A DNA stretch of 64,000 nt from a virus (IMGVR_UViG_3300022824_000016:1-64000), one strand, 5' to 3'. Shown: positions 2,265 through 49,812, numbered from the stretch's first letter. Notes: generated by a model from the letters alone, not told the origin. Program-made: numbers and translations.

Positions 2265-5200
2265 TTAGTGAACTCTTCGTGCCACAATGCTTCCATCCGC
2301 ATTCAATGTTCCTGCGTTGAAAGTTCCTGTCGCTACCAGACAGTAAGTAGTCGTTGTTGAGATGAGTGCCTGTTGTATTGAAACTGAAGAACCAAAGTTT
2401 GCAGAACTCGCTGTCAAAACAGGAGGATTTAGATATACTTCCTGCCCGGTTGTTACCTGGGAAGGTGATGAACATCCTGTACCGCTGTTGATACTCAACT
2501 CAAAAGTATTGCCCACAGCAACCGTAGCCGAAGTCGCGAGAAAATTTCCGGATGCCGAAACATTCCAATCACCTGCTGTCAAGGAAATGGAAGCAACTAC
2601 AGCCGGTGTTGCATTTGTAAGCGTGACAGCCGAACCGGAAGGAACCAGAGACTGGATAATCTGTCCAATGTATCCGGTCGATGCGGCTACTCCATCTACC
2701 TCTCCATAGATATTGACTTTGCTTCCGCTCGTCGAGTTACCCACCGTCACTGTTTTTGCGTTTGCATTAGTGCCAATATTGACCGCACCAGTTGTACCGC
2801 TATCTAATGTGACTGTGCCGGTTGTGCCGGATTGAACGGTCAAAGCAGTGGTGGCAAGAGACGTAATTGAACCCAGAAAGTTCGTCGGCCCCTGGTATCC
2901 GGCGATCAGTGTGCAATTGGTAATTGGCGCAAGATTAAAGCCGTAGGCGACATAGGTGGTCGTGCCGGATACGCAAGCTACGCCTGTTCCTGTACCGGTA
3001 ATCAAGCCGCTAAGCGCATGGAGCGTTGAGACGGTATTGGCCGTTGGCAGGTAAATATTGGCTGTCCCTGCCACGGTGCTCAACAGACCGCCGTTGAGCA
3101 GCAATTGCCCACCCACAGTCATATCGATGTTGTAGCCGCTCGTCTTCGTAATGTTTGGGTTATAAAGTGCCAGCGTTGCACTTGTGCCACCGGACTTGAT
3201 TCCCATGCTGCCGGTCAGAGCCTCGCCGTAAAGCAGACCATTTACTGTTAGAGTATTGCTATTGCCGCTTAGATTTACGCCGTACATGTGACTATAACAA
3301 CCCGAACCCAGCACTACATTACCGCCACTGTAACTGCCTCCATGCCGTTCACTGCGCTGCTGACTAGAACAGGTCGAATAGGTGACATTTCCGACAGTGT
3401 TTAGATCGTAGATGGTCATCGGAATTGAATTGGTCGTAACTCCGCCACTGAAAGTCCAGGTTGAATTGTTCCCGTAGATAATTGTTGGAATCGCGGGAAA
3501 CGTCGCCGCAGCGGACATTGAATAGGCTGAATTGGGACTACTCCAGATTGAAACAAGTCCTGTGCTGGGAACAGCCGCAGCCAGCGCAGTAAGCGTCTGG
3601 TAAGGGCGCTCAATAGTACCGTCAGCCGTATAGCTATCTGTGCGATTGCCGTCCAAAGTTAGCATTGATGTATCTGTTGCCGGATAAACAAATGCGGTTG
3701 TGCTGGCCGCTGTTTGATAAGGCTGGGCACCTGCAGAGCCACCAGATAATGCAGACACAGGACCTACAACGCTTTTAGCGTGCAGCACAGCATTTGGTGT
3801 ACTACTACCCAAGTAAATGTCTGTAACTGAACTATTGCCAATGACAGCCGTATTAGATCCTGCGCCTGTTACGCCTTGACCGATGACGATCTCGTTACTG
3901 TCCCCTGCGGCTGATACAGCGGTGCCAGCTCCCAAACATAATAGGTTGCTTCCAGTCGTTGCATTTGAACAGGAATTGGAACCATATACAGAGTTTGAAT
4001 TACCCGAAGTTAATGCCAGACCAGCATACAATCCTACGCCTGTGTTGCTATATGAAGATTCACTTTGTAAAGCCGCAGATCCGATACCGACATTACCGTA
4101 TCCACTAAACGGATTTGCTGCTGATAGTACAGATGCCCCAAGCGCTAAATTGTCGTGACAGGTTGTGCAATACAACCCAGCATAAGTTCCTCCCATAAAA
4201 TTGTTGTATGCTGTAGTTGATGTGCTCATAACTGACGGGCCAATAGCTATGTTATTGTTGCCCGTGGTTGTAGTTGGAAGTGCCTGGAATCCAATGGAAT
4301 AATTTTGGTTCCACGCATTGATTGCAAGAGGCACATTTCCGGCATTGTAATGCACTATCGTATCGTTATAAGTTTCAAAAACCCCAAACATTGCACTATC
4401 GCCCAGAGAAGGCATTGCATTGTATAATCCCGAAAAACGATTAAACGTATATGCCGCTGGTAATGCAGCTAAAATACAATTATGGGAACAGTAAAAATCG
4501 TTATTGTTGACATTTTCTAAAATCTGAATGTCGTTTGTGTTTCCAGCAGTAGTAACTATCCCAAAGTCGCTAAATACAACATATTCACCAACAGACAAAC
4601 CATATAGATCACCACCTTCAATATCAGAATCGCGCATACTTAGAGCAACTACATTGTACGGATACGTGCCCACAACAGAAATAACCGTTCCTGTCCCATC
4701 TGCACCGACTGAACTGTCCTGTACGTGTAGTCGGTTGAATGTCACGTTGTTCAGTTCGCCCACGAGAGATTCCACTAGCATAGATGGAATCGTGCTATTT
4801 CCATTTGCTACACTTTTTGGATATGCCCGTATATAAATGTCATTAAGTGTCAAATTTCCATAGTCATTGCCAGAGGTATTATTGTTAATCAGGTTCAGTC
4901 CGGTATTTATATTATATGCAAACAGTCGATCAGCCTGAATATCTTGAACATTAACAAAGTTCCATGCTCCCGATGTACCATTCACAGTCGTACTACCAAT
5001 CGCATATAAATCACTGAACCTTGAAAACGCCGCCCCTACGATTTGCGCACCACCTAAACTAATTGCATAATTCGTGTAGTTTGTAAAAGCGGCATTTAAA
5101 ATTCCAGCACCACGAATGTTAGAACCTGTAAAGCAGGTGGTAATTCCAGCACAATCAAAAACGGTTCCACCATTCAAAATCATGTTAAGATCAGGCATAC

Positions 5201-7332: not shown

Positions 7333-7671
7333 TTAAAACTGCCCGACCAACGCTGCAATCTGAAACGTTTTGGTCGAGAGATTTCCACTGGCTTGCCCCC
7401 CAGCAGCCAGGTAGTAATACAGATTCCATGTTTGCCGAGTTCCCGAACCAGATGGTCCAGCAATCGCAAAAATGGTACCGTCGGTTGACATCACGCCGCC
7501 ACAAACTGCGTCGATGTAATAGTTAGGCAAAGCAAGTGAAATTGGATCTTCTGCACCAGCGGTATAAGCTGTTGGTCCGGTACCGATTCCGACGAAAAGT
7601 CCGCGCCGTCCTACAAACTCCGGATAGAGTGCTCCACCACCTGCGCCTTTTCCAAGTGCTGTAAGAATCAT
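7333..7671 (-). CDS. Hypothetical virion protein
   Basis: 112-aa ORF in the structural operon. Confidence 0.6.
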   Translation of the reverse strand: MILTALGKGAGGGALYPEFVGRRGLFVGIGTGPTAYTAGAEDPISLALPNYYIDAVCGGVMSTDGTIFAIAGPSGSGTRQTWNLYYYLAAGGQASGNLSTKTFQIAALVGQF

Positions 7672-15142: not shown

Positions 15143-15532
15143 TTAATGCCCTTTTTCATATCCTTCACTATGAAGATAACTAATTCGGTTCATTTTGGTT
15201 TTGTCCGGTCGCTGATCATAGATTTCCAAATGTCGACGCAAGAATTCTCGATTTAGATTGTTTCTGGCATTGGCCATTTGATGAAGGATGTGATTGCGCA
15301 GATTAGAGCGGATCGGACCTTCAATCATTTCTCGCTGCTCATCTTCCATCTGAATTTTAATTGCTTCCTGTTTTCGCATGCGTTCTGACCACACTTCCGC
15401 ATCATGCGCAGAGTTACAAACAATCTTCTCAAATCCATAAGGAGCTGGATAGCGCTCAGGAAGTCCCATACGGATCTCTCCGGTTGTTCCGTCATACCAG
15501 TAAACTATTTTTGTGCTTAGTTGAGAATTCAA
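15143..15532 (-). CDS. Hypothetical protein
   Basis: Start overlaps the terminase stop (ATGA coupling). Confidence 0.6.
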   Translation of the reverse strand: MNSQLSTKIVYWYDGTTGEIRMGLPERYPAPYGFEKIVCNSAHDAEVWSERMRKQEAIKIQMEDEQREMIEGPIRSNLRNHILHQMANARNNLNREFLRRHLEIYDQRPDKTKMNRISYLHSEGYEKGH

Positions 15533-18500
15533 TTCATTCCTCCAACAGAAACCTTATTCACAGAGCATGATTTCAAAACCAACGGCGGCATTTTTTCCTG
15601 TGGCAAAGCGTACCGCTTTTGCGCTCGGTCCGCAAGAATATCAAAATCATGTGCAGTAAAAAACGATTGTGCGGCGGCGCGTACACGATCATCATGCTGC
15701 CCGCTTCGATGTTCCATCTTGGATATTCTTCCAGCCGCCGCATGGCGTTCCAGAGTTTTCAATTCCTCAATCAACCATTTTGATGACGGTCGATACCAGC
15801 CACCATTAACAGCTTCCGTAAAGCGTGTCATCAGAATAGGCACACTCCATACGTTAGAAAACCATCCTTGTTTTTTTCCTGAATCGTCTTTGATCTTTTT
15901 GCTGTCATAACGCCGTGGAACATGGTGCCAATGGAATCCCATCAGCTTGAGTTGATGCTGGCATGTATCACCAGGACGTCCAATTTGTTCCACGCAAAAT
16001 TTTACGCCGCGTGAATCCTGTGTATTCTCTCCATACCAGGCTGCCATGCAAGCCGCGAATCCCACGATCTGCGCAGAGTTGATCCGGTTCGATGTCAGTT
16101 CGGCAACCTGATAATCGAATTCATCGCCAAATCGATTCCGTGTCATTGATACGCAGGTTCTGTCTTCATCTTCTTTGCCAAGTCCATCAGCCGTATCGAT
16201 TCCGCAACTGTAGCTATAACCGGCTTTGGGTTCTTCGTACACCAGAAACTTGTCAAAGGTCTCCGTCTCAATTTCTTCGTTAACCGGCAAAAGTGGAATC
16301 AGCACCCACTTGTATTGCTGACCGCGATCTGAATTCCAGAGAATCCGTATACGGTCTTTATCATAATCAATGATCGATTCGTCCGGCTCAAAACCATCAT
16401 CGATGGAATCGCCGGTAATCGCATAAGCTTGAACCGGTTTCTTTCTTTCTTTTGTATCGCCTTCCACTTCATAAACATGGTTCTCAATTTCCTGAATTGT
16501 TTCAAGATCAAAAACGCTGTCGTGGACTCCCGTTAAAGCTTCAAAGTCATCGGCTGCCATCTGAGCCAACCAGATTTTTTGGGTGTGGTTCTTGCAAGCC
16601 TGAAGATAATTGAACTCCCAAAACCATTGCTGTTCAATCGGCATCCTCCAGTCTGCACCCACTACATTAGCCAGATAGGGAGTATTGCGAATGTAGAGTT
16701 CGCAACGCTGCACGTGCTTCCGCGTTACCTCCTGCCGCTTTCTCATAAAATCGGCAGGCACAGGAAATTTACGCACCCAGTCTGGCTCCGGATACAGATC
16801 CGGAACCATAGCCCAGGGAATAAATACCGGGCAAAGCCGGGACTGTCCTTTCGGCCAATCAGCTTTTGCCGACCGCCATGTATTTGCCAACCAGCCAGTA
16901 TTGCCTCCTCCAGTTCCTTCAAAAACCATGAACAGGTTGCGCGACGAGTGGGTGGCACGCAGCAGACCTTCCTCAATTACCTTTTCCGGTTTGGGAATAT
17001 CAGCGAGTTCCGACACATGAATACAGTTATGGACAGAACACTGCAATGTGGTGAAAGAATGCGCGGCATCATTTATTTCCACGTCGTAGAACGATTCGCT
17101 AAATCCTTCATCAACTTTTTCGATCTTCACATCAATTGCTGAACCATCTTCGTTGTAATGCCAGTGACGAGCTTTTTCGTGGGAGGGAATATGTTCAAAA
17201 TTGAGGGCCATTCGATAGCGATAGCCACACATCCCCACCATTACAAGTTTCCAGGTTTCGCGCTTTTTACCACCCCATGGTGATTGCATAGCTGCCTGGT
17301 GGTAGATCGATGCCCATCCGAAACCCAGTGAAGCCACCAAATCGCGCATCTGAAGCGTGATGGCTTCGCAGATACAGGGAGCAATGACGTGATTGGAGTT
17401 TTTTTCGCAGTGGCCATCGCCATCGAGATAGCCCTTCAAGAGATAAAGGCAAAAATCGCGGCCTGCTGTCCAAATCCAATCTGGTACATGCTTGTCGTAC
17501 TTACGACCAAAGTTTTCTGCCAACCAACGGGCCAACCATGCACAGGAAATGCAAACCTGTGAACCGTTTTCACCGTGATTCTTTGTGTGTATGTATTGGT
17601 CTTCGCCTAGCACTGCTTTGATTGCTGTTTCAGTTCGTATAGCCTCACGACGATGCACGGTGAAAGTTACTTCCGACAAATATGGCTTTTTGTTGAGTTT
17701 TCCTATTCCGCTTTCATGGCATGATCCTTCAGCAAGATAAAGCCCGGCAAGGTAGGCAACTACCGGCGAATACGTCAGTTCAAATTCAATCGCATGCGCT
17801 GCATCGATCTTTCCGCGCAGCATTTTTTGTAATGGTTCCCCATCGTTTTCAGCGCGGATTTCGCGGACTGGATAACGTACAAAATCGCCTACGCCTAAAT
17901 CTTCTGCTTCGCACCAACCATCAGGAGTCCAGATGCGATGGTCGAGCGTTGATTCAAGCGGCTGATAGCATCCCCATAGCTTGAGTATCCGTGTCGGTTC
18001 ACCATGACGCGAAGTTTTGAAGGAACACTTTACTGCTGCCAATCGACCATCATGGGTCAAAACCCGGTCGCCAAGCGCAAGATCCTCAATGGCTTTTACA
18101 CCACCATTAGCAACGCGTACAGGTGTACCCGGTACCAGGCAGGTCGGTGTCCAACCTTGTGCAATGCCGGTGGCCTGCATACCAGACTGAATCGAAAGGA
18201 CCGAACCATTGTCGTAGGCACCCTTCGGCAAGCGCCGCGGCACCAACCACCAGGGACAACGATTATAAGCCGTGTCCAAAATGCGACCGATCAATTCCGA
18301 CTTATCGGATTGCACGGAAGCCATCACGGCCTGAGTATGCGGAACAAAGAGTAAACGATGAAGGAATTTAAGCGCAGTTTTTGTTGTGACGCCAACCTGT
18401 CGCGCCTTGAGAATCATCAGTTCGATGGAGACCTGTTTTTCGTCAAAGCCAGCAATAACTCCATCAAATATTTTCTGAGATAATCGATTTTGGAATTTAA

Positions 18501-18795
18501 AGATCTGGCCTTTTTCGTCGCAGACCCAGGCATAGCGACTTTCAAAATAGCCGGAGTCCAGACCGCAAAGTGCTTGCTCGTTCTCGATCCAGCGCCAGAT
18601 TTCCTTTTGACGTTTCTGCGTGATGGGACGTTGCAACGTGACATAAGAGGACCGGGAGTTGCTCTCGATCTTAACCAGAGAATCAATGTACTGCTTAAAT
18701 TCCTGTACCTGTTCCAGTGAATGATAAACAGGCATCCAGCCTTCGAGGGCTGCGAATTCGTCCAGATTGCGTAATACAATCCGTTCGCTATACAT
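15529..18795 (-). CDS. terL: Terminase large subunit containing an intein
   Basis: Walker A-like ILKARQVGVTT, Walker B CIHVSE, EGTG coupling motif, nuclease GIDTADG and HDDRV. Confidence 0.9.
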   Translation of the reverse strand: MYSERIVLRNLDEFAALEGWMPVYHSLEQVQEFKQYIDSLVKIESNSRSSYVTLQRPITQKRQKEIWRWIENEQALCGLDSGYFESRYAWVCDEKGQIFKFQNRLSQKIFDGVIAGFDEKQVSIELMILKARQVGVTTKTALKFLHRLLFVPHTQAVMASVQSDKSELIGRILDTAYNRCPWWLVPRRLPKGAYDNGSVLSIQSGMQATGIAQGWTPTCLVPGTPVRVANGGVKAIEDLALGDRVLTHDGRLAAVKCSFKTSRHGEPTRILKLWGCYQPLESTLDHRIWTPDGWCEAEDLGVGDFVRYPVREIRAENDGEPLQKMLRGKIDAAHAIEFELTYSPVVAYLAGLYLAEGSCHESGIGKLNKKPYLSEVTFTVHRREAIRTETAIKAVLGEDQYIHTKNHGENGSQVCISCAWLARWLAENFGRKYDKHVPDWIWTAGRDFCLYLLKGYLDGDGHCEKNSNHVIAPCICEAITLQMRDLVASLGFGWASIYHQAAMQSPWGGKKRETWKLVMVGMCGYRYRMALNFEHIPSHEKARHWHYNEDGSAIDVKIEKVDEGFSESFYDVEINDAAHSFTTLQCSVHNCIHVSELADIPKPEKVIEEGLLRATHSSRNLFMVFEGTGGGNTGWLANTWRSAKADWPKGQSRLCPVFIPWAMVPDLYPEPDWVRKFPVPADFMRKRQEVTRKHVQRCELYIRNTPYLANVVGADWRMPIEQQWFWEFNYLQACKNHTQKIWLAQMAADDFEALTGVHDSVFDLETIQEIENHVYEVEGDTKERKKPVQAYAITGDSIDDGFEPDESIIDYDKDRIRILWNSDRGQQYKWVLIPLLPVNEEIETETFDKFLVYEEPKAGYSYSCGIDTADGLGKEDEDRTCVSMTRNRFGDEFDYQVAELTSNRINSAQIVGFAACMAAWYGENTQDSRGVKFCVEQIGRPGDTCQHQLKLMGFHWHHVPRRYDSKKIKDDSGKKQGWFSNVWSVPILMTRFTEAVNGGWYRPSSKWLIEELKTLERHAAAGRISKMEHRSGQHDDRVRAAAQSFFTAHDFDILADRAQKRYALPQEKMPPLVLKSCSVNKVSVGGMN
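17026..18141 (-). mobile_element. 372-aa intein with LAGLIDADG endonuclease in terL
   Basis: T|CLVPGTPVRV ... STLDHRIW ... YLAGLYLAEG ... LLKGYLDGDG ... FYDVEI ... SVHN|C. Confidence 0.92.
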
Positions 18796-19105: not shown

Positions 19106-19942
19106 TCATTCGCAGAGATTGTAGACCGACATGCAGGAACGAACCGGGAACAGTGGAATCTGATCCTCATCGACACTTTCTATGTAGCGAAAAACATCTG
19201 CGCAAGTTGGAATGGGAACCGTACGGCCGTCTTTGGTGATAACGGATTTTGAACAGAAGCGCGATGGAATCTTGTCGGACCGAAACCATGTTCGATAGTT
19301 TTCTGGATCGTTCGCAGCCTCGTTGGCATGGTTCTCCAAGTCAATCAAACGTGTTTTCAGCTCGGGAAAGAAGCTGATTGCACGTTTCAATTCTCCCAAA
19401 CCGGTCATGATGCAAGGCCAACAGCCAACTCTCGTTGCTCCCATAAGATAAAGTGGATTTGGGCGGATATTGTACTTTTCCATCATAGCGAAACATTGTT
19501 CTGCAGACCAGTGCAGCAAAGGCCGCTTGATCCAGTAGCCACCTGCATCATTGAGCCATTCCGACTCGCTCAACTTAGATCTGGAATAGGATTCATCGGC
19601 GCGAATGCCCTGATAACTGGTCACCTCGTCATCCAGAGATTTAAAATAACGATGCAGCGGAAAAACTTTCAATTCCTGAGTGCAAAAACGCGAATGCACA
19701 CCGGGAACCATTTTTCGGTCAACGACTAATTGTACAAAGCCATCGGAATACTTCTCGCTCTTAAGTGTGACAAGAGCGCCATCCAAAACCGTCTGATTGA
19801 TCTCTTCAACGTAGGCATAGGTAAGTGGATGTTCCCAACCCGTATCACAAAACACAGCCGTAAATTCCGACAGATTTTCCTTTGCCCAAAGAATCAGAGC
19901 CGTCGAATCTTTACCTCCGCTAAAGCAGACAATGTTTTTCAT
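19106..19942 (-). CDS. PAPS reductase family protein
   Basis: FSGGKDS, DTGWEHP, RFCTQELK, GIRADES..R, RVGCWPC motifs. Confidence 0.9.
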   Translation of the reverse strand: MKNIVCFSGGKDSTALILWAKENLSEFTAVFCDTGWEHPLTYAYVEEINQTVLDGALVTLKSEKYSDGFVQLVVDRKMVPGVHSRFCTQELKVFPLHRYFKSLDDEVTSYQGIRADESYSRSKLSESEWLNDAGGYWIKRPLLHWSAEQCFAMMEKYNIRPNPLYLMGATRVGCWPCIMTGLGELKRAISFFPELKTRLIDLENHANEAANDPENYRTWFRSDKIPSRFCSKSVITKDGRTVPIPTCADVFRYIESVDEDQIPLFPVRSCMSVYNLCE

Positions 19943-37038: not shown

Positions 37039-37157
37039 ACCGGGCGAAACTTACGAACGGAAGGCGCGGGTTCGAATCCCGCAGGGCGCCCCAAAAAAAT
37101 ATGCGCCCTTGGCTCAGGGGTAGAGCGTCTGCATCAGATTAAAAGTTTCGGGCTGGT
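37039..37157 (+). ncRNA. YrlA-like circularly permuted tRNA mimic
   Basis: T-arm GCGGG-TTCGAAT-CCCGC, then loop-closed acceptor AGGGCGC/GCGCCCT, then D-arm GCTC-AGGGGTA-GAGC, all enclosed by a long stem (CGAAACTT/AAGTTTCG, ACCGG/CTGGT). Confidence 0.75.
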
Positions 37158-37179: not shown

Positions 37180-37252
37180 AATCGACTAGCTCAGTTGGTA
37201 GAGCGTCTGACTTGTAATCAGAATGTCGCCGGTTCAAATCCGGTGTCGATAT
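37180..37252 (+). tRNA. tRNA-Thr(TGT), no encoded CCA, 1:72 mismatch
   Basis: ATCGAC/GTCGAT acceptor, TAGCTCAGTTGGTAGAGC D-arm, TCTGA-CTTGTAA-TCAGA anticodon arm, GCCGG-TTCAAAT-CCGGT T-arm. Confidence 0.85.
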
Positions 37253-37257
37253 TCGTA

Positions 37258-37294
37258 GGGCCGTCCGCGCGGAAGCGGGCGGCCCATTAATTTT
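37258..37294 (+). terminator. Terminator after the ncRNA/tRNA cluster
   Basis: GGGCCGTCCGC-GCGGAA-GCGGGCGGCCC followed by an AT-rich tail. Confidence 0.7.
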
Positions 37295-37572: not shown

Positions 37573-39834
37573 ATGATTCAACACTTAACCTACGATGACA
37601 CCTATGTTTATGTGCATGCCGCTGATACGTCGCTGAAAACCACCAAAGCCTTTACGCATGGCACGATTGTTTTTGATATAACATCGCGCACGGTGGTTTT
37701 TGGAAATCTGGACGCCGTGGAGATTCCAAAAGGTCTCATTCTTGAAGCAGGCAAAACGCTCACCTTTCAACTGGTGGGGTCCAACGGCAAATTGCGCCCG
37801 CAGACTCGCTCCGGCGCATTGCTGGGGAATGAGAAACATCCGGAGCTGCTGCGTGTGTCTGGCATGGCAAAGACACCACGCCGATTTGCCGCTGAAGACG
37901 GTTGGGGAAATGCAATCTATAAATTCCGCGCCTACTTTACACATCCCGGAATTGACATGACCTCCGACGGACAGTTCAAAAAATTTGAAGATCTTCCTGA
38001 GTGGCTCAGAGGCTGTATTGAAAGACAAAAAGCGTTATGGAACCGGCTGGCGTGGCTTTGCCGCGATGCGCGGAGAAAATGCTCTCCGGTTTTGCCTGAG
38101 CAGATCGCAGAGTTTGTGGCGAATACAATCCTGCCAGAGATCGATGCTTTCAATCTAACGCGGAGCAGAGACAAAACCAAAGAAAAAATGCGGCACCCAG
38201 CTAAACTCAAAATAGCAGCACCCGGCGTGGACGGGTTGTGGAGTTTTGTTGGCGAACTGCGCGGGCGGATCGAAAAAAAACTCCCGGTACCAGATGGGCT
38301 GCTCGAAAAGGTGGTGGAATATGCCGAACAGTTTAAACCAGACTATACGCCACTGAATGAGTTTATGCGCGACTTTACAGAGATTGCTGAAAAAGAGGCT
38401 GTGGCATTGGGACTGAAACGCTTTGAGATCCGGCCTACTGTGAGCGCCTTCAAAGCAGTTCTGGACCGACGTAAAACTACCGCAGCTTCCTGGTCAGAAG
38501 GCTGGCCATTGATCAAATATCCTGACGGCCCCAAAGCTGGCAATTGGGGGATACATTATTACTTCAACAAGGCGGGTGTAGGTTCAGAACTTTTTGAAAA
38601 CGGCCAAAATATACCGGGCATATGTGCAGGTCCGGCTTTTCAGCCTGCGCAGGGGGGCAGAGGAAAAGACACCATCTCTTTCTTCCAGCCTTTCGGCAAA
38701 ATATCTGTTGTTGGCACAGTGACAAAACGAGCCCTACGTCCAGTAGTGATTTCGATTCCTGCAGAGAAAGGAGAGCGATGGGATTTTCATTTTTCGATCA
38801 TGGAACACCGCGCTTTGCCGCTTAACTCTCACATCAAGGAATGGAAACTGATCTATCAGGATGGCAAACTTTGGCTGTGTCTGGTAGTTGAATTGCAGCG
38901 TCCAATTCCCAAAAAGGACTCACTTGCGGCGGGTTTGGAAATTGGCTGGCGGAGAACGGAAGAAGGTATCCGTTTTGCCACGCTTTACGAACCGACAACG
39001 AAAAGCATCTGTGAAGCAACAATCAACTTTCAGCGATCTCCCAAAGATCACAAAGATCGTGTCCCGTTTCGCATTGACTTGGGTCCCACACGATGGGAGA
39101 AACGTCATATCACTGAATTGCTTCCAGATTGGAAACCGAAAGATGCAATTCCCAATGTGATTGAAATACGAATGGTTTTAGCCGCACGCTGTGATTATCT
39201 GAAAGATACAGCCAAAATTCGGCTGCGCAAGCATCTGGGCGAAAATACGCCGCCATGGCTGGAGAAAGCCGGAAGCAACGGTTTGCACAGGCTGGCGCAG
39301 GAATTTATGGAAGACACTACCGTTCAAACCATTGTGAACGAATGGGAGGCAAATAATCGGCGAATTGCAAAATTGTCTGCTTTTTATTTTGCTCAAACAA
39401 CCGAGCGTTTGGAATACGCTCAACTGCAGGTAGCACACGATATTTGCAAGCATCTGCAAGCGAAAGGCATGGGACGGTTGATTTTGGAAGAAAATTTTCT
39501 GTCCAAAATTGCGCAACGGCACGACAATGAAGATCCCGAAAGTCTGAAGCGGTCGCAAAAGTATCGGCAGTTTGCAGCTCCAGGTAAATTTGTTTCTGCA
39601 GTAAAGATGATCGCAATGAAGTATGGAATCGCAATAGAGAGTCGCGAGAACATTAACCTCACACGTATATGTCATTACTGCGATCATCTGAATCCGTCCA
39701 CCGAAGCAGAAACACTTATCTGTGAAGGGTGCGGACGGGAGATCAAGCAGGACCACAACACGGCCATTAATCTCGTGCGCTTTGAAGATCTTGAACTGGC
39801 GGAAAAAGCACTGCACGCCGGAAGCAAAAAATAG
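37573..39834 (+). CDS. cas12m: Type V CRISPR effector, Cas12m-like (V-M/V-U1), with N-terminal extension
   Basis: HRALP, GLEIGWRRTEEG (RuvC-I), LILEE (RuvC-II), FAAPG, CxxC...CxxC Zn finger, QDHNTAINL (RuvC-III); GAGGAG RBS; abuts cas4. Confidence 0.75.
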   Translation: MIQHLTYDDTYVYVHAADTSLKTTKAFTHGTIVFDITSRTVVFGNLDAVEIPKGLILEAGKTLTFQLVGSNGKLRPQTRSGALLGNEKHPELLRVSGMAKTPRRFAAEDGWGNAIYKFRAYFTHPGIDMTSDGQFKKFEDLPEWLRGCIERQKALWNRLAWLCRDARRKCSPVLPEQIAEFVANTILPEIDAFNLTRSRDKTKEKMRHPAKLKIAAPGVDGLWSFVGELRGRIEKKLPVPDGLLEKVVEYAEQFKPDYTPLNEFMRDFTEIAEKEAVALGLKRFEIRPTVSAFKAVLDRRKTTAASWSEGWPLIKYPDGPKAGNWGIHYYFNKAGVGSELFENGQNIPGICAGPAFQPAQGGRGKDTISFFQPFGKISVVGTVTKRALRPVVISIPAEKGERWDFHFSIMEHRALPLNSHIKEWKLIYQDGKLWLCLVVELQRPIPKKDSLAAGLEIGWRRTEEGIRFATLYEPTTKSICEATINFQRSPKDHKDRVPFRIDLGPTRWEKRHITELLPDWKPKDAIPNVIEIRMVLAARCDYLKDTAKIRLRKHLGENTPPWLEKAGSNGLHRLAQEFMEDTTVQTIVNEWEANNRRIAKLSAFYFAQTTERLEYAQLQVAHDICKHLQAKGMGRLILEENFLSKIAQRHDNEDPESLKRSQKYRQFAAPGKFVSAVKMIAMKYGIAIESRENINLTRICHYCDHLNPSTEAETLICEGCGREIKQDHNTAINLVRFEDLELAEKALHAGSKK

Positions 39835-40470
39835 ATGGAGGACGATGATTTCATTTTGATCTCTGCGCTACAGCACTATAGCTATTGCCAGCGTCAGTGT
39901 GCATTGATTCACGCAGAACAGAGTTTTGCGGATAACGTGCACACGGCGCGAGGCAACGCGGATCATAGATTCGTCGATCTGGAAGGTTATGAATCACATG
40001 CAGATGTGCATATCGAACGAGCACTTCCTCTGGTTTGTGAGAAGATCGGTTTGCGTGGAAAAGCCGATATTGTCGAATTTTTCTCTGACGGTTCAGCCTA
40101 TCCCGTCGAGTACAAACATGGTGTGCGTCGCCCGCAGAATCATGACGACATACAACTGGTTGCCCAAGCTCTCTGCCTTGAAGAGATGACTGGCCATGTT
40201 GTACCGTTTGGTGCAATTTATCACATCGGTAGCCGTCGAAGACGCGAAGTAAAGATCACAGATGAATTACGCCAACAGGTGGTTGACATAACTCAGACAA
40301 TTCGGGAAATGCTGCAATCAGAAAAGATGCCACCTGCCCCCAACGATGCTCGTTGTACTGAATGCTCACTGATTGAAATCTGTCAACCGCAAATGCTTGC
40401 AGAACAAGTGAAACGGCAGACTTTGCGCAAAAATTTGTTCAGCGTGGAGGATGATTGCAGATCCTGTTAA
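39835..40470 (+). CDS. cas4: CRISPR-associated protein Cas4 (I-C-like)
   Basis: ISALQHYSYCQRQCALIH, GKADIVE, PVEYKHG, QLVAQALCLEEM, C-terminal CxxCSLxxxC. Confidence 0.95.
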   Translation: MEDDDFILISALQHYSYCQRQCALIHAEQSFADNVHTARGNADHRFVDLEGYESHADVHIERALPLVCEKIGLRGKADIVEFFSDGSAYPVEYKHGVRRPQNHDDIQLVAQALCLEEMTGHVVPFGAIYHIGSRRRREVKITDELRQQVVDITQTIREMLQSEKMPPAPNDARCTECSLIEICQPQMLAEQVKRQTLRKNLFSVEDDCRSC

Positions 40471-41486
40471 ATACTCTTTATCTAACTCTGCCCGGCTATC
40501 TGCATTTAGATAACGATACCTTGCGTTTTGATGTGGAGCGAATTACCCGTTTGCGAGTGCCACTACATCACATTGGAGGCGTTGTCTGCTTTGGCGACGT
40601 GCTGGTTTCGCCTGCGGTAATGGGACGGTTAGCCGGAGAAGGAAAGTCGTTGGTATTTCTTGATCGGAATGGACGCTTTAAGGCTCGTCTTGAAGGACCA
40701 GTCAACGGCAATATTTTGCTACGTAAAGCACAGTTTGCGCATGCTGATTCGCCAATGTTTGTCTTGGCACATGCCAAAGCCTGCATAGCGGGTAAACTGA
40801 AAAACAGCCGTTGCGTGCTCTTGCGTAGTGCACGCGATGCTGGCGAAGAAAGCGATGCCGAACGACTGCGTGAAGTTACGAAATCCATTGCTGTCAATTT
40901 GCGCTCTCTGGAGTCGGCACCAACGCTCGATGTTGTACGCGGTCTAGAGGGTGAGTCGGCTCGCTGTTATTTTGCGGTGTTTTCTTGTTTAATTCACAGG
41001 GAGCAACGTGCAGCGTTTACGTTGGATGGCCGGAGTCGCCGTCCACCACGGGATCGGATGAACGCATTGCTTTCCTTTCTCTACAGCATGGTGATGAACG
41101 ATTGCCGCAGTGCGCTCGAATCTGTTGGACTTGATCCGCAACTTGGTTATCTTCATACTGTGCGTCCTGGACGTGCATCATTGGCTCTTGATCTGATGGA
41201 AGAGTTTCGTTCCGTTATCGCAGATCGGCTAGCGGTTACTTTGGTCAATCGTAAACAAATCCAAGCAAATGATTTTGAAGAACGACCAGGTGGCATGGTG
41301 CAGTTACGGGATGCTGCACGCAAGACGCTGGTTCTTGCTTTTCAGGAACGCAAGCGAGATCTTACTTCCCATCCATTGCTTGATCAAAAGTTAACCATAG
41401 GATTACTACCTCAGATTCAAGCGCGACTATTGGCCCGTGTTATTCGTGGTGAAGTCGAGGACTATCTTCCTTATTTGGAGGGTTAG
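40455..41486 (+). CDS. cas1: CRISPR-associated endonuclease Cas1 (type I-C-like)
   Basis: LLNTLY...[55 protein letters not shown]; TTG start. Confidence 0.97.
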
Positions 41487-41488
41487 CT

Positions 41489-41779
41489 GTGCTTATTTTG
41501 GTGTGTTATGACGTAGCGACGGATACCCCACAAGGTCGAAGACGCTTGCACCGAGTGGCTAAAACTTGTGAGGCTGTTGGCCAGCGAGTACAGCGGTCAG
41601 TTTTTGAATGCCATGTAAACCAAATAGAATATGAGAAATTGGAACGGAAGCTGCTGGATGAAATTGATCCTTTGGAAGATTGCTTGCGCTTTTATCGGTT
41701 GACCGAACCGTTCAACCAACATTTGAAGGAATACGGTAAATTCAAGGCATTCGATTTTGATGGACCATTGATTGTGTGA
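41489..41779 (+). CDS. cas2: CRISPR-associated protein Cas2
   Basis: LVCYDV...RRL.RVAK.C...GQRVQ.SVFEC...D.LRFY. Confidence 0.97.
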
Positions 41780-41964
41780 ACCTGTTTCCACGAACCAGAA
41801 GTGACAGACAAAAGGCGGGAGGTTCGCGGAACGCGGAAGTTTCCTGTTTTCAAGGAGATAAGTATGACATACCAATTTTGTGATTATGGAAAAGATGTGG
41901 AAAAGACGAGGTTCGCGATTTCCACAGGACAAACCATTGATGCTATTATGTTTTTAGTGCCGAA
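41780..41964 (+). promoter_or_regulatory. CRISPR leader
   Basis: Between cas2 and the first repeat; contains GAACC...GAGGTTCGCG twice, a pattern common in leaders. Confidence 0.65.
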
Positions 41965-42718
41965 GGCACAATGAACATAAAGTGCATCGCACAGATGCAA
42001 CATGCCCTGATTCAGCACTTCAACGCCCACAACCTATCGGCACAATGAACATAAAGTGCATCGCACAGATGCAACAGAGAAAGCTACAGTTCGATCAACG
42101 ATGCTAGATCGGCACAATGAACATAAAGTGCATCGCACAGATGCAACTGTGAGGCTCGCTGGCTCACGGCCCTTCGTGATAGGCACAATGAACATAAAGT
42201 GCATCGCACAGATGCAACTCAGCAGCGTGCGTCTGGAGCGGCAACAATACCGGGGCACAATGAACATAAAGTGCATCGCACAGATGCAACTTATCCGCTG
42301 CTGTGCCAACAATACTACCCGACTGGGCACAATGAACATAAAGTGCATCGCACAGATGCAACGTAATCTGTCTGCTCCTGAACAGCACTATTTCGCGGCA
42401 CAATGAACATAAAGTGCATCGCACAGATGCAACCAGAACTACTGGTGAGTTCACTGCCCATTGATCTTGGCACAATGAACATAAAGTGCATCGCACAGAT
42501 GCAACCAGAACTACTGGTGAGTTCACTGCCCATTGATCTTGGCACAATGAACATAAAGTGCATCGCACAGATGCAACTGATAGCGTGCGCCGCCCTGCAT
42601 CGCAGGTCCGCGGCACAATGAACATAAAGTGCATCGCACAGATGCAACTGAATACCATTCCAACGTTGTTGCGTGATCCAAGGCACAATGAACATAAAGT
42701 GCATCGCACAGATGCAAC
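41965..42718 (+). CRISPR. CRISPR array: 11 identical 37-bp repeats GGCACAATGAACATAAAGTGCATCGCACAGATGCAAC and 10 spacers (33-37 nt)
   Basis: Repeats start at 41965, 42039, 42111, 42182, 42254, 42326, 42397, 42469, 42541, 42612 and 42682; spacers 7 and 8 identical; 3' hairpin TGCATC-GCACA-GATGCA-AC. Confidence 0.99.
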
Positions 42719-47915: not shown

Positions 47916-49205
47916 TCAGGCCACCAGGTGCACGTCATATTCGCTTTCATGACGACATTTGTCGATAAAGTCGGCCCAGTGCTGCATCATTTTAGTGCGG
48001 GCAGCCAGATATTTTGCTTTGTTGTAGACGGCGGCAACCTCACCTTTGCCGATATGCGAAAGCTGCATCTCAACATGCGTTGGATCAAAGCCCTGCTCAT
48101 TGAGATACGTAGACGCAATGTGCCTCCAGCCGTGTCCGGTCATGCGGCCTTTATAGCCCATCCGATCCAGTGCTTTGAGAATAGTATTGTTGCTCATTAT
48201 GCCCGTGCCACCGTTGTAATCAGGAAAAAGACGATCTGTATCGCCACTGACAGTTTGCAGACGTTTTAGTACGGCAAGAGCCTGTGAGGAGAGCGGCACA
48301 ATATGTTCGCGCTTCATCTTCATGCGTTCTGCCGGGATAACCCAGAGATTCTGTTTCCAATCGATTTCTTCCCATCGGCCACCGATCAACTCCCCGGTAC
48401 GAATAAAGGTCAGGCTGAGTAGTTCCATGGCCAGCCGGGTCAGAACGTTTCCGTTATAGTTGCGCATCTTTGCAAGCAGTTCCGGTACATCACCGATGTC
48501 CAGATGGGCGAAGTTCTTTTGAACTACTCTGGACAGGATCTGGCCCGGCTCGATGCTGGCAGCTGGATTTGTGGCATTTTCATCAAGAAAGCCATTATTC
48601 AATCCCCAATCAAAGATCTGACGAATGATCTGCAGATTGCGGCGCGCAATATCGCGGGCACCGCGGGCATCCACAGCCTGAGAGAGAGCCACGATGTCCA
48701 TGCGTTTGATCTCATCGGGACGTTTTTTGCCAATTTGAGCAATTACGTCGTTTTCCAGCCGGGCTTCAACATTGGCGGCGTATTTCCGGTTCTTATCGGC
48801 TTTCCACCAGGTAAACCATTTACGGACCAGATACTCGAAACAGTCCGTAGCGGTTTTCTCTTCCTCGGCGCACTCCGCTTTTTTCACTTCTTTGGCTTCT
48901 TTACGCACAGCCATGGGATCGACGCCTGTGGCCAGAAGAGCCCGAGCTTTGGCATGGCACACACGTGCTTCCGCCAGGGAAACATCGGGATACTTGCCCA
49001 ATGCCATTTGTTTTTCTTTTCCTTCAAAACGATAGCGCCAACGCCAGAGTTTTCCACCAGTTGGTGCAACTAACAGATAAAGTCCTCCTCTATCAGCGAG
49101 GTAGTATGGCTTTGATTCTGGCATGGATTTTTGGCATTTCAGATTGGTTAATTCGGCTGAAAGCTTCGATGAATTGCTTGATGTTTTTTCTTTCAAAGTT
49201 TGCAT
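47916..49205 (-). CDS. int: P4-type tyrosine integrase
   Basis: Arm-binding N-terminus (DRGGLYLLVAPTGGKLWRWRYRF), FIRTGE, HGWRH, QLSH, AAVYNKA. Confidence 0.95.
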   Translation of the reverse strand: MQTLKEKTSSNSSKLSAELTNLKCQKSMPESKPYYLADRGGLYLLVAPTGGKLWRWRYRFEGKEKQMALGKYPDVSLAEARVCHAKARALLATGVDPMAVRKEAKEVKKAECAEEEKTATDCFEYLVRKWFTWWKADKNRKYAANVEARLENDVIAQIGKKRPDEIKRMDIVALSQAVDARGARDIARRNLQIIRQIFDWGLNNGFLDENATNPAASIEPGQILSRVVQKNFAHLDIGDVPELLAKMRNYNGNVLTRLAMELLSLTFIRTGELIGGRWEEIDWKQNLWVIPAERMKMKREHIVPLSSQALAVLKRLQTVSGDTDRLFPDYNGGTGIMSNNTILKALDRMGYKGRMTGHGWRHIASTYLNEQGFDPTHVEMQLSHIGKGEVAAVYNKAKYLAARTKMMQHWADFIDKCRHESEYDVHLVA

Positions 49206-49212
49206 GTTTTCC

Positions 49213-49812
49213 TCATTTTCCTGTTTCTTTGCGAATGGTTTTCAAATCAATACCCAAAGCAAGCAGTTCTTGTATTTGCTTTTCAAAAGCAGCCCGATTT
49301 AAAACCGACAGATTATGGGTCAGATTTTTAAAAGCCAAATTGCTTTCGGCCAATATTTTATGGGCCATGTTTTCGAAATTGCGGCTGCTTGTAACCAACA
49401 ATTCGTTCATCAACTTTTCGTAAGCTCGACTACTTGAATTGAGTAATTGAGATGCCAGTTTTTCTTGTGCCAGCATCGCAGCAGCCAAAATGGATATTTT
49501 CTTTTCTTCGCGAAATTCCGCTCTCTTTCTCAATTTTTCAGATTTTCTTTTGGCTATGGGATCAACACCCGTGGCCAGAAGAGTCCGTGCTTTGGCATGA
49601 AGTACGCGTGCTTCCATCAAAGAAATATTGGGATATTTGCCCAACGCCATGAGTTTTTCTTTTTCTTCAAAACGGTAGCGCCATTGCCAGTGTTTGCTTC
49701 CTCTCGGTGTTATCAACAAACACAAACCATGCCCGTCGGTAAGGCGATAGAGCTTCAGACGAGGAGATGCTCTTTGGCAAATCAGATCGGAAAGTCTGTT
49801 TGTAGCCTTCAT
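49213..49812 (-). CDS. Integrase arm-binding-domain-only paralog with helical C-terminus
   Basis: DGHGLCLLITPRGSKHWQWRYRF..KEKLMALGKYP...ATGVDP; no catalytic domain. Confidence 0.8.
   Translation of the reverse strand: MKATNRLSDLICQRASPRLKLYRLTDGHGLCLLITPRGSKHWQWRYRFEEKEKLMALGKYPNISLMEARVLHAKARTLLATGVDPIAKRKSEKLRKRAEFREEKKISILAAAMLAQEKLASQLLNSSSRAYEKLMNELLVTSSRNFENMAHKILAESNLAFKNLTHNLSVLNRAAFEKQIQELLALGIDLKTIRKETGK

Follow-up and report, generated by a model that had tools for sequence, protein, structure and literature searches.

A phage-borne Cas12m-related effector gene coupled to type I-C-derived cas4, cas1 and cas2 genes in Acidobacteriaceae

Type V-M CRISPR-Cas systems, whose effector is Cas12m, have been described as lacking cas1, cas2, and cas4 (PMC10691335, PMC11013384), and in the literature they are carried by plasmids and “some prophages.” What, then, is a locus in which a Cas12m-like gene is followed on a phage genome by cas4, cas1, cas2, and a CRISPR array? 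The locus in question lies at positions 37573 to 42718 of a 64,000-nucleotide viral sequence, IMGVR_UViG_3300022824_000016:1-64000, the whole of which is called the window here. An earlier note on this DNA, made from the sequence alone, had singled out the locus as the best candidate for an undescribed system, partly on the grounds that V-M loci mostly lack cas1, cas2, and cas4, a statement with which the two papers cited above agree. Our analysis suggests that the locus is probably a complete phage-borne type V CRISPR-Cas system, in which an effector from a clade related to Cas12m is joined to an I-C-derived cas4-cas1-cas2 module, a leader, and the repeat of the effector family. It represents a real, recurrent, and apparently unreported variant of type V-M on temperate phages of peat Acidobacteriaceae, and not a new type or subtype.

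Organization of the locus

Mapping of open reading frames showed a single co-oriented block on the + strand, which runs from the effector gene through cas4, cas1, and cas2 to a leader and an array (37573-42718). The effector gene (37573-39834, +) encodes a Cas12m-related type V protein of 753 amino acids (P0001). It is followed with a gap of 0 bp by cas4 (39835-40470, +; 211 amino acids, I-C type), which overlaps cas1 (40455-41486, +; 343 amino acids, Cas1c) by 16 nt, and cas2 (41489-41779, +; 96 amino acids) begins after a further gap of 2 bp. Beyond cas2 lie a 185-bp leader with I-C-type motifs (41780-41964, +) and an array in which 11 identical 37-nt repeats alternate with 10 spacers of 33 to 37 nt (41965-42718, +). 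The gene order, the coordinates, and the junctions of 0, -16, and +2 bp given in the earlier note were all reproduced by this map.

The window comprises the initial 64 kb of an IMG/VR provirus record of 78,587 b, and phage functions are spread throughout that record. They include genes for structure and packaging (tail fibre, major head protein, and large terminase) and for replication and recombination (DUF932, ERF recombinase, exonuclease, and primase-helicase), and the record also encodes an integrase, several DNA methyltransferases, an endolysin, and a peptide deformylase. The integrase, head, tail, terminase, and endolysin genes bear out the temperate-phage setting that had been proposed. 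The CRISPR locus itself sits between a tRNA-Thr gene and the ERF gene.

Profile searches (PF05107 included) and tblastn with host I-C proteins found no cas3, cas5, cas8, or cas7 gene anywhere in the 78.6-kb record, which is estimated to be 59% complete; the only matches to the host I-C proteins were cas4, cas1, and cas2. Likewise, there is no Y1 transposase gene in the whole record, and neither a Y1 nor a serine transposase gene adjoins the effector gene. The lack of cas3, cas5, cas7, cas8, and transposase genes claimed for the locus is thus matched across the record, where Y1 enzymes were the transposases searched for.

The effector belongs to a distinct clade related to Cas12m

Sequence, profile, and predicted fold all give Cas12m as the top match to the effector, in line with the identity first proposed for it. 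In phmmer searches against the PDB, the matches were Cas12m proteins (UnCas12m4a, 9e-7; MmCas12m2, 8e-5; GoCas12m, ~1e-4), then TnpB, and nothing else. The best effector profiles in PADLOC were Cas12u1, the old name for V-M (2.3e-28), and a Cas12f-labelled model (7.8e-29), both of which cover the C-terminal half only. Every one of the effector motifs quoted in the earlier note is present, and HMMER pairs HRALP, LEIGWRRTEEG, FAAPG, and CEGCG..QD of the effector with HRWLP, LHLGWRSTEEG, HAAPG, and CDGCG..DQD of MmCas12m2. An AlphaFold2 model made from 45 relatives (pLDDT 85, pTM 0.74) gave as its best Foldseek matches Cas12m2 (8hhl, E 4e-20) and GoCas12m (4e-18), followed by Cas12f and TnpB (1e-10), and the VIA structural aligner matched model residues 105 to 740 to the whole of Cas12m2 (residues 1 to 592) with a Z score of 19.6, compared with ~16 for Cas12f. 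The protein has the RuvC-I, RuvC-II, and RuvC-III motifs and the CxxC...CxxC ribbon of type V effectors, and its predicted fold matches Cas12 and TnpB structures. Its gene accompanies a CRISPR array, which follows it directly in relatives and is located 2.1 kb downstream of it in the present locus.

Searches of 5.8 billion proteins returned 104 related clusters, mostly of proteins of 720 to 795 amino acids. Where these clusters have names at all, the names are “hypothetical,” “zinc ribbon,” or “transposase” only, and none of the 104 carries a Cas12 label in any source; a tblastn search of GenBank phages with the effector gave no match. In an exhaustive HMMER search, ~43 representative clusters were found at E values of <1e-30 and then, after a gap, Cas12m-sized proteins at ~1e-15 to 1e-6, two of which are close relatives of GoCas12m and MmCas12m2 (E 1e-108 to 1e-126). 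In an unrooted FastTree phylogeny, the effector family and a sister group of proteins of 640 to 690 amino acids were split with 98% local support from 53 V-M-like proteins, which include close relatives of GoCas12m and MmCas12m2. The effector clade (~720 to 850 amino acids, with an extra N-terminal domain) is therefore distinct, and Cas12m (V-M) proteins are its closest known relatives.

Does this distinctness amount to a new subtype? When family and V-M alignments, both built here and not taken from the published profiles, were compared with hhalign, the probability was 100 and the E value was 1e-46 to 1e-51 over ~530 aligned columns. The relative HHalign score against V-M, 0.21 to 0.30, corresponds to a UPGMA depth of ~0.6 to 0.8, where the limit is 1.5 to 2; expressed as a relative score, the limit for a CRISPR subtype is ~0.02 to 0.05 (PMC10442227, PMC12669027). 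Because the score lies well inside the subtype limit, we regard the family as a distinct variant of V-M and not as a new subtype. The idea of an undescribed system consequently survives in the form of an apparently unreported variant, but by profile similarity it does not extend to an undescribed type or subtype. Nor is the system an isolated find, since the family comprises more than 100 protein clusters and at least seven further loci with the same four-gene order. The effector does not cluster with the TnpB of transposons, and neither does it fall in a subtype for which adaptation genes are routine, two outcomes that had been named as contradicting the original interpretation.

The N-terminal domain, the RuvC site, and the zinc ribbon

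V-M effectors are compact proteins of ~500 to 630 amino acids made up of WED, REC, RuvC, and zinc-ribbon (TNB) domains only. Unlike them, the effector described here has 753 amino acids, falls in a separate clade in the tree, and carries an added 104-residue N-terminal domain without a recognisable fold (residues 1 to 104; 37573-37884, +), which is conserved across the clade, absent from Cas12m, and outside every Cas12m alignment. We take these residues to be extra because the structural match to Cas12m2 starts at residue 105, and none of the Cas12 and TnpB alignments listed from the PDB extends before model residue 101. The conserved columns of the domain include M1, V14, F27, P52, L67, G72, R75, R79, and G97. 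Modelled alone, the domain reached a pLDDT of 84, and its best PDB match had a Z score of only 4.2. An AbrB/MazE-like identity was considered for it and dropped, since no solved chain scored above Z 4.2 and a protein-atlas feature search gave values of no more than 0.79.

The RuvC site is built from Glu456 in RuvC-I (GLEIGW; 38938-38940, +), Glu639 in RuvC-II (LILEENF; 39487-39489, +), and Asp727 in RuvC-III (KQDHNTAINL). Asp727 lies together with the zinc-ribbon (TNB) cysteines C700, C703, C717, and C720 in a segment (39670-39753, +) that matches PF07282 (residues 671 to 734). In the 45-sequence alignment, the column of Glu456 contains D in 27 sequences, H in 9, E in 8, and N in 1, that of Glu639 contains E in 34 and Q in 9, and D727 is conserved in 43 of the 45. 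C717 and C720 of the ribbon are invariant, C703 is found in 44 of the 45, and C700 is found in 35, with His in the other 10. Across the family, the RuvC triad is D-E-D in most members, E-E-D in the subclade of the window, and H-Q-D in a subclade of proteins of ~790 amino acids, a pattern that seems to echo the “gradual inactivation” described for V-M (PMC10691335). The E-E-D triad is unlike those of Cas12m in that it is absent from the four clade triads given for Cas12m in PMC10442227. Finally, H412-R413 of the effector, which aligns with H269-R270 of Cas12m2, is nearly invariant in the family; in Cas12m2, this pair reads the 3' end of the CRISPR RNA (crRNA) (PMC10442227).

The adaptation module derives from type I-C systems of the host family

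All three adaptation proteins match I-C or general Cas families. Cas4 matches PF01930 (1.5e-24) and PADLOC Cas4c (4.4e-75), Cas1 matches PF01867 (8e-93) and the NCBIfam Cas1c model TIGR03640 (472.9 bits, cutoff 385), and Cas2 matches PF09827 (8.9e-23) and PADLOC Cas2c (6e-36), and the scores of the NCBIfam models for type V Cas1 and Cas4 are far below those of the I-C and general Cas models. The nearest Cas1 proteins (84 to 85% identity; L078 and L079) are encoded in complete chromosomal cas3-cas5c-cas8c-cas7c-cas4-cas1-cas2 loci, one of them on a 620-kb contig; genomes labelled as Terracidiphilus are among those with such loci, and close Cas1 relatives are named as type I-C Cas1c of Terracidiphilus. 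Identity to a chromosomal I-C locus is 84% for Cas1, 77% for Cas2, and 69% for Cas4. In the Cas1 phylogeny, the effector-linked proteins form one group (support, 84) beside a tight cluster of host I-C proteins (support, 93). The TIGR03640 score above cutoff, the location of the nearest Cas1 genes in complete I-C loci, and the leader motifs shared with the host (see below) uphold the earlier proposal of an I-C-derived adaptation module.

The module of Terracidiphilus-like Acidobacteriaceae resembles that of the phage in gene order, in tight coupling, and in related leader motifs, and host I-C arrays have the geometry of the phage array, namely, a 37-nt repeat, spacers of 33 to 37 nt, and a period of 70 to 74 nt. 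The differences are equally clear. The Cas1c, Cas4, and Cas2 lineage of type I-C is present, but the phage record has none of cas3, cas5c, cas8c, and cas7c, the sequence of the repeat differs, and the phage Cas4 protein has an additional tail. Cas4 retains the RecB motif and the four cluster cysteines, and the tail, an extra C-terminal C-[RK]-[SR]-C that overlaps the start of cas1 (window 40453-40470; also in L080 and L081), is restricted to effector-linked copies, the chromosomal I-C Cas4 proteins being without a C-x-x-C tail.

The metagenome-assembled genomes (MAGs) that contain related loci are labelled as Terracidiphilus or as other Acidobacteriaceae and derive from peat and bog samples. 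Because an ERF gene lies downstream in many of the related loci, these appear to represent largely one lineage of related temperate phages.

A repeat of the effector family and a leader resembling those of type I-C

Folding of the repeat showed the 3' end expected from the earlier note, a 6-bp hairpin followed by AC. The six hairpin pairs are formed in all 18 of the distinct family repeats, with compensatory changes at three of the six, and among ~70 related loci gathered from IMG/VR, JGI metagenomes, MAGs, and ENA assemblies, most have a hairpin-AC array beside the effector gene, with or without cas genes. Judged by its sequence, the repeat is that of the Cas12m-like effector family. No anti-repeat of at least 10 nt was detected between 36.9 and 43 kb, giving no signal of a trans-activating CRISPR RNA (tracrRNA). 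Together with the covarying 3' hairpin and the His-Arg pair, this is the crRNA-only pattern of V-M as far as it can be read at the level of sequence.

In the leader, GGTTCGCG occurs at 41821 and 41910. The features that it has in common with host I-C leaders are an inverted motif pair (CGCGAACC ... GGTTCGCG), a second GGTTCGCG, and a TTGAT box, and it aligns both with the leaders of host I-C arrays and with those of other effector-linked arrays. A promoter-like site with an extended -10 element, TCCACA-17-TATTAT (41921-41949, +), lies 16 bp 5' of the first repeat, in a scan that was not above chance for the region overall.

In module-bearing loci, the cas-adjacent array has 11 to 22 identical repeats, and the three orphan arrays in the same record as the window are degenerate. 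These orphan arrays lie outside the window on the minus strand and contain seven, two, and five repeats (record 65002-65463, 67352-67461, and 78208-78532, which correspond to L018:5003-5464, 7353-7462, and 18209-18533). Their repeats are degenerate copies of the main repeat in which the 3' hairpin-AC is kept and the 5' part varies, and none of their 11 further spacers matches the phage record. In the main array, spacers 7 and 8 are identical (42434-42468 and 42506-42540), and the array of one close relative of the phage, L001, likewise has a tandem-duplicated spacer, a different one (L001:3812-3845 and 3883-3916).

The module recurs in relatives and appears to have been lost repeatedly

The order effector-cas4-cas1-cas2-leader-array is found in at least seven further loci. 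Their effectors are 81% (L081/L082), 61% (L060), 60% (L080 and L070), 59% (L083), and 57% (L024/L068) identical to that of the window, and one more contig probably has the same four-gene order, judging from the effector P0030 and the Cas1 protein P0325, each of which was reported from a contig of the same length. Most relatives consist of effector and array only, which fits the V-M layout; the window and the at least seven further loci depart from that layout in having cas1, cas2, and cas4.

Apparent traces of the module are present in loci that lack it. L001 has a 95%-identical effector and the same phage backbone, no cas genes, and entirely different spacers. At its junction, the effector stop codon is followed by ATGGA, as at the start of cas4, and then by a match to the last bases of cas2 and a shortened leader of the I-C type. 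In L053, L054, and L058, whose effectors are 51% identical to that of the window, ~34 nt resembling the start of cas4 are fused to the first repeat (L053:8243-8278) and read MESEDLILISA, compared with MEDDDFILISA in the window. A match of this quality was equalled in 10 of 2,000 random windows, and its position is exactly the one expected. In L022 and L019, an I-C-type leader directly follows the effector gene. These observations suggest that the module is ancestral in the clade and has repeatedly been lost, and the simplest reading would be one old capture followed by repeated clean deletions. A recent, local gain by this phage was also considered, but it was dropped once the module had been found in diverged relatives and once an I-C-type leader and remnants of cas4 and cas2 had been found in loci that lack cas genes.

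In one subclade, with effectors ~66% identical to that of the window, an array of three repeats runs in the opposite direction to the effector gene (L003:10288-10471, L029, L030, and L033).

Proposed mode of action

If its components act together, the locus would work as follows. Cas4, Cas1, and Cas2 would pick spacers of 33 to 37 nt and insert them at the leader end, probably choosing sites beside a T-rich 5' protospacer-adjacent motif (PAM), as in type I-C. The array would be transcribed from the leader on the + strand, and the effector would trim the crRNA and hold it by its conserved 3' hairpin-AC handle through His412-Arg413, with no tracrRNA; a single-crRNA complex of this kind is suggested by the likeness of the fold to Cas12m, by conservation of the His-Arg pair, and by the failure to detect an anti-repeat. 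The complex is then predicted to bind matching double-stranded DNA next to a PAM. With its E-E-D RuvC site, the effector would be somewhat likelier to bind tightly and silence the target, as Cas12m does, than to cut it. The most likely targets during lysogeny would be mobile elements that compete with the phage. That the system may be self-sufficient and able to acquire spacers is suggested by its intact motifs, the identity of its repeats, a leader of the I-C type, and spacers of I-C geometry. Three features are in keeping with an array in the course of extension: its repeats are uniform, its spacers are as long as those of the host, and the orphan arrays, by contrast, are decayed.

Several observations weigh against this interpretation. 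The grouping of the effector-linked Cas1 proteins has 84% local support only, and because the effector tree is unrooted, “sister to V-M” and “nested in V-M” fit it equally. At RuvC-I, E456 is a conservative change in a family in which most relatives have D-E-D, so that the site may still be that of a working nuclease. Cas-less relatives have long arrays of identical repeats (25 in L022 and 17 in L071), and the duplicated spacers here and in L001 point to recombination or slippage besides acquisition. Moreover, none of the 290 unique family spacers yielded a protospacer. Nothing was returned when the array was compared by blastn with GenBank phages, when IMG/VR was scanned for exact 22- to 24-nt matches to the window spacers, or when four host MAGs and 401 host-family genomes were searched with the array by BLAST, and when the 290 unique family and host I-C spacers were compared with all fetched loci and the full phage record, the only matches were spacers shared by sister arrays. 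Because none was found for any spacer, the role in inter-phage competition proposed in the earlier note is unsupported.

These points bear differently on the alternatives. That the effector is an active RNA-guided DNA nuclease, cutting its targets as most Cas12 proteins do, is unlikely but deserves serious consideration. All three acidic RuvC positions are filled (E456, E639, and D727), the triad is the canonical D-E-D in most family members, and the protein exceeds Cas12m in size, having additional mass in REC and at the N terminus. We nevertheless favour silencing, because the Cas12m proteins tested so far all bind DNA without cutting it, including those with a D-E-D triad (PMC11013384); in addition, changing HDD to DED in Cas12m2 did not restore cutting (PMC10442227), and the drift of the triad through D-E-D, E-E-D, and H-Q-D, as in V-M, suggests relaxed selection on catalysis. 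A second alternative concerns the adaptation genes, which might be passengers on the phage, with arrays extended mainly by host I-C proteins in trans or by recombination. Host I-C arrays do agree with the phage array in the lengths of their repeats and spacers, and their leader motifs are related; and since cas-less relatives keep an I-C-type leader and may have long uniform arrays, as do L022 and L071, the quality of an array is no proof that the phage module extended it. Given those two arrays, the wholly different spacers of the 95%-identical but cas-less L001 locus, and the spacer duplications in two arrays, host I-C proteins in trans and recombination are possible contributors. As the main explanation, this seems rather improbable to us: the module has been kept with intact motifs and tight coupling across effectors diverged to 57% identity, and the repeat is strongly unlike the host I-C repeat, so that host Cas1-Cas2 may not accept it.

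The two other alternatives concern identity. The system might already have been catalogued without a name, either among the ~12 type V lineages that reportedly acquired adaptation genes (the “V-U*” clades of Altae-Tran et al. 2023) or in a Cas12m clade of Wu et al. 2022. Some 50 origins of Cas12 and at least 12 captures of adaptation genes have been reported from JGI metagenomes (PMC10691335), many variants are still unnamed (PMC12669027), and a relative HHalign score of 0.21 to 0.30 is inside the usual subtype limit. On the other hand, V-M is said to have no other cas genes (PMC10691335), a September 2026 preprint still treats phage Cas12m as new and without adaptation genes, no source names the 104 related clusters Cas12, and a full-text search of the literature gave no match; we consider prior cataloguing doubtful, at about the level of the nuclease alternative. 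Far less probable than any of these is the proposal that the large gene encodes a transposon TnpB and adjoins an orphan I-C module and array only by coincidence. Weak matches to TnpB models do occur in the C-terminal 120 residues, but the score of 24.8 bits for NF040570 is far below the cutoff of 100, the record has no Y1 transposase and a single copy of the gene, no Y1 or serine transposase adjoins it, and in dozens of loci the gene stands beside arrays of the same repeat family, whose repeat is unlike I-C repeats. We rejected TnpB identity on the subcutoff score, the lack of a Y1 transposase, and the recurrent linkage to arrays, in searches that were not aimed specifically at transposon ends.

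Comparison with known systems

The reading of the locus as a complete V-M variant agrees with what is shared with described V-M systems. The WED-REC-RuvC-zinc-ribbon body of the effector matches that of Cas12m (MmCas12m2, PDB 8HHL/8HIO; GoCas12m, 8PM4; UnCas12m4a, 23VU). The single effector, the downstream array, the lack of a tracrRNA signal, and the repeat ending in a hairpin and AC are further points of likeness, as are the conserved His-Arg pair, the drifting RuvC triad, and carriage by a mobile element. Unlike V-M, for which no other cas genes are described, the present locus combines a cas4-cas1-cas2 module of its own with a long, uniform array. In combining a single RuvC effector with cas4-cas1-cas2 and an array, it is like subtypes V-A, V-B, and V-E (PMC10691335), but the effectors of those systems have ~1,000 to 1,300 amino acids and gave Foldseek E values of 1e-5 to 1e-6, compared with 4e-20 for Cas12m. 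Cas12j/CasPhi, CasLambda, and phage Cas12m loci are likewise phage borne and crRNA only, with proteins of ~700 to 800 amino acids and small arrays. CasPhi and CasLambda are much weaker structural matches to the effector (Z 12 to 13, compared with 19.6 for Cas12m2), and the phage-borne Cas12m loci in the September 2026 preprint, which calls a cas-less phage Cas12m a first, were described without the adaptation genes that are present here.

The locus contradicts descriptions of Cas12m systems as minimal, nonadaptive, and carried by plasmids and a few prophages. Loci of this effector clade that have the module, lack it, or retain its remnants form a natural series, alongside the donor host system. 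With them, the coupling of a type V effector to a foreign adaptation module becomes testable through direct comparison of leaders, repeat and spacer lengths, and PAM compatibility. A compact effector that binds DNA, paired with an acquisition module matched to it, could also serve as a natural template for adaptation-coupled CRISPR interference or recording tools. A more far-reaching proposal, which we put forward tentatively and hold to be plausible rather than probable, is that the clade represents the first Cas12m-type system with an adaptive capacity of its own. In this view, a lineage of temperate phages would have captured a host I-C module and its leader and refitted them to a Cas12m-type repeat, the system would record and silence invaders, probably without cutting them, the N-terminal domain would be a new functional part, and the deletions of the module would amount to switching between “learning” and “fixed-memory” forms.

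Other features of the phage record

The large terminase gene (window 15529-18795, -; 1,088 amino acids) has matches to Hint and LAGLIDADG, which we take as a probable sign of an intein carrying a homing endonuclease. A full tyrosine integrase gene (window 47916-49205, -) is directly followed by a gene for a protein of 199 amino acids with an Arm DNA-binding domain only (49213-49812, -). This pair, an integrase and a truncated second copy, is also found in the relative L001, and phage genes flank the integrase on both sides. A palindromic 19-nt motif (AGTCCAGAATCCGGACT-like) occurs six times in the early region (23676, 26875, 28742, 32234, 36073, and 47164), where it may act as an operator or a terminator. 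A gene of the PAPS-reductase family (window 19106-19942, -) and the peptide deformylase gene (L018:6050-6640, -) may be auxiliary metabolic genes. Upstream of the CRISPR locus, positions 37046 to 37152 (+) give a full-length but subthreshold Rfam match to YrlA (RF02553), a Y-RNA-like tRNA mimic (33.3 bits, compared with a gathering score of 69; E 2.5e-4), which lies just 5' of the tRNA-Thr gene (37180-37252) and a strong terminator-like hairpin (37258-37285).

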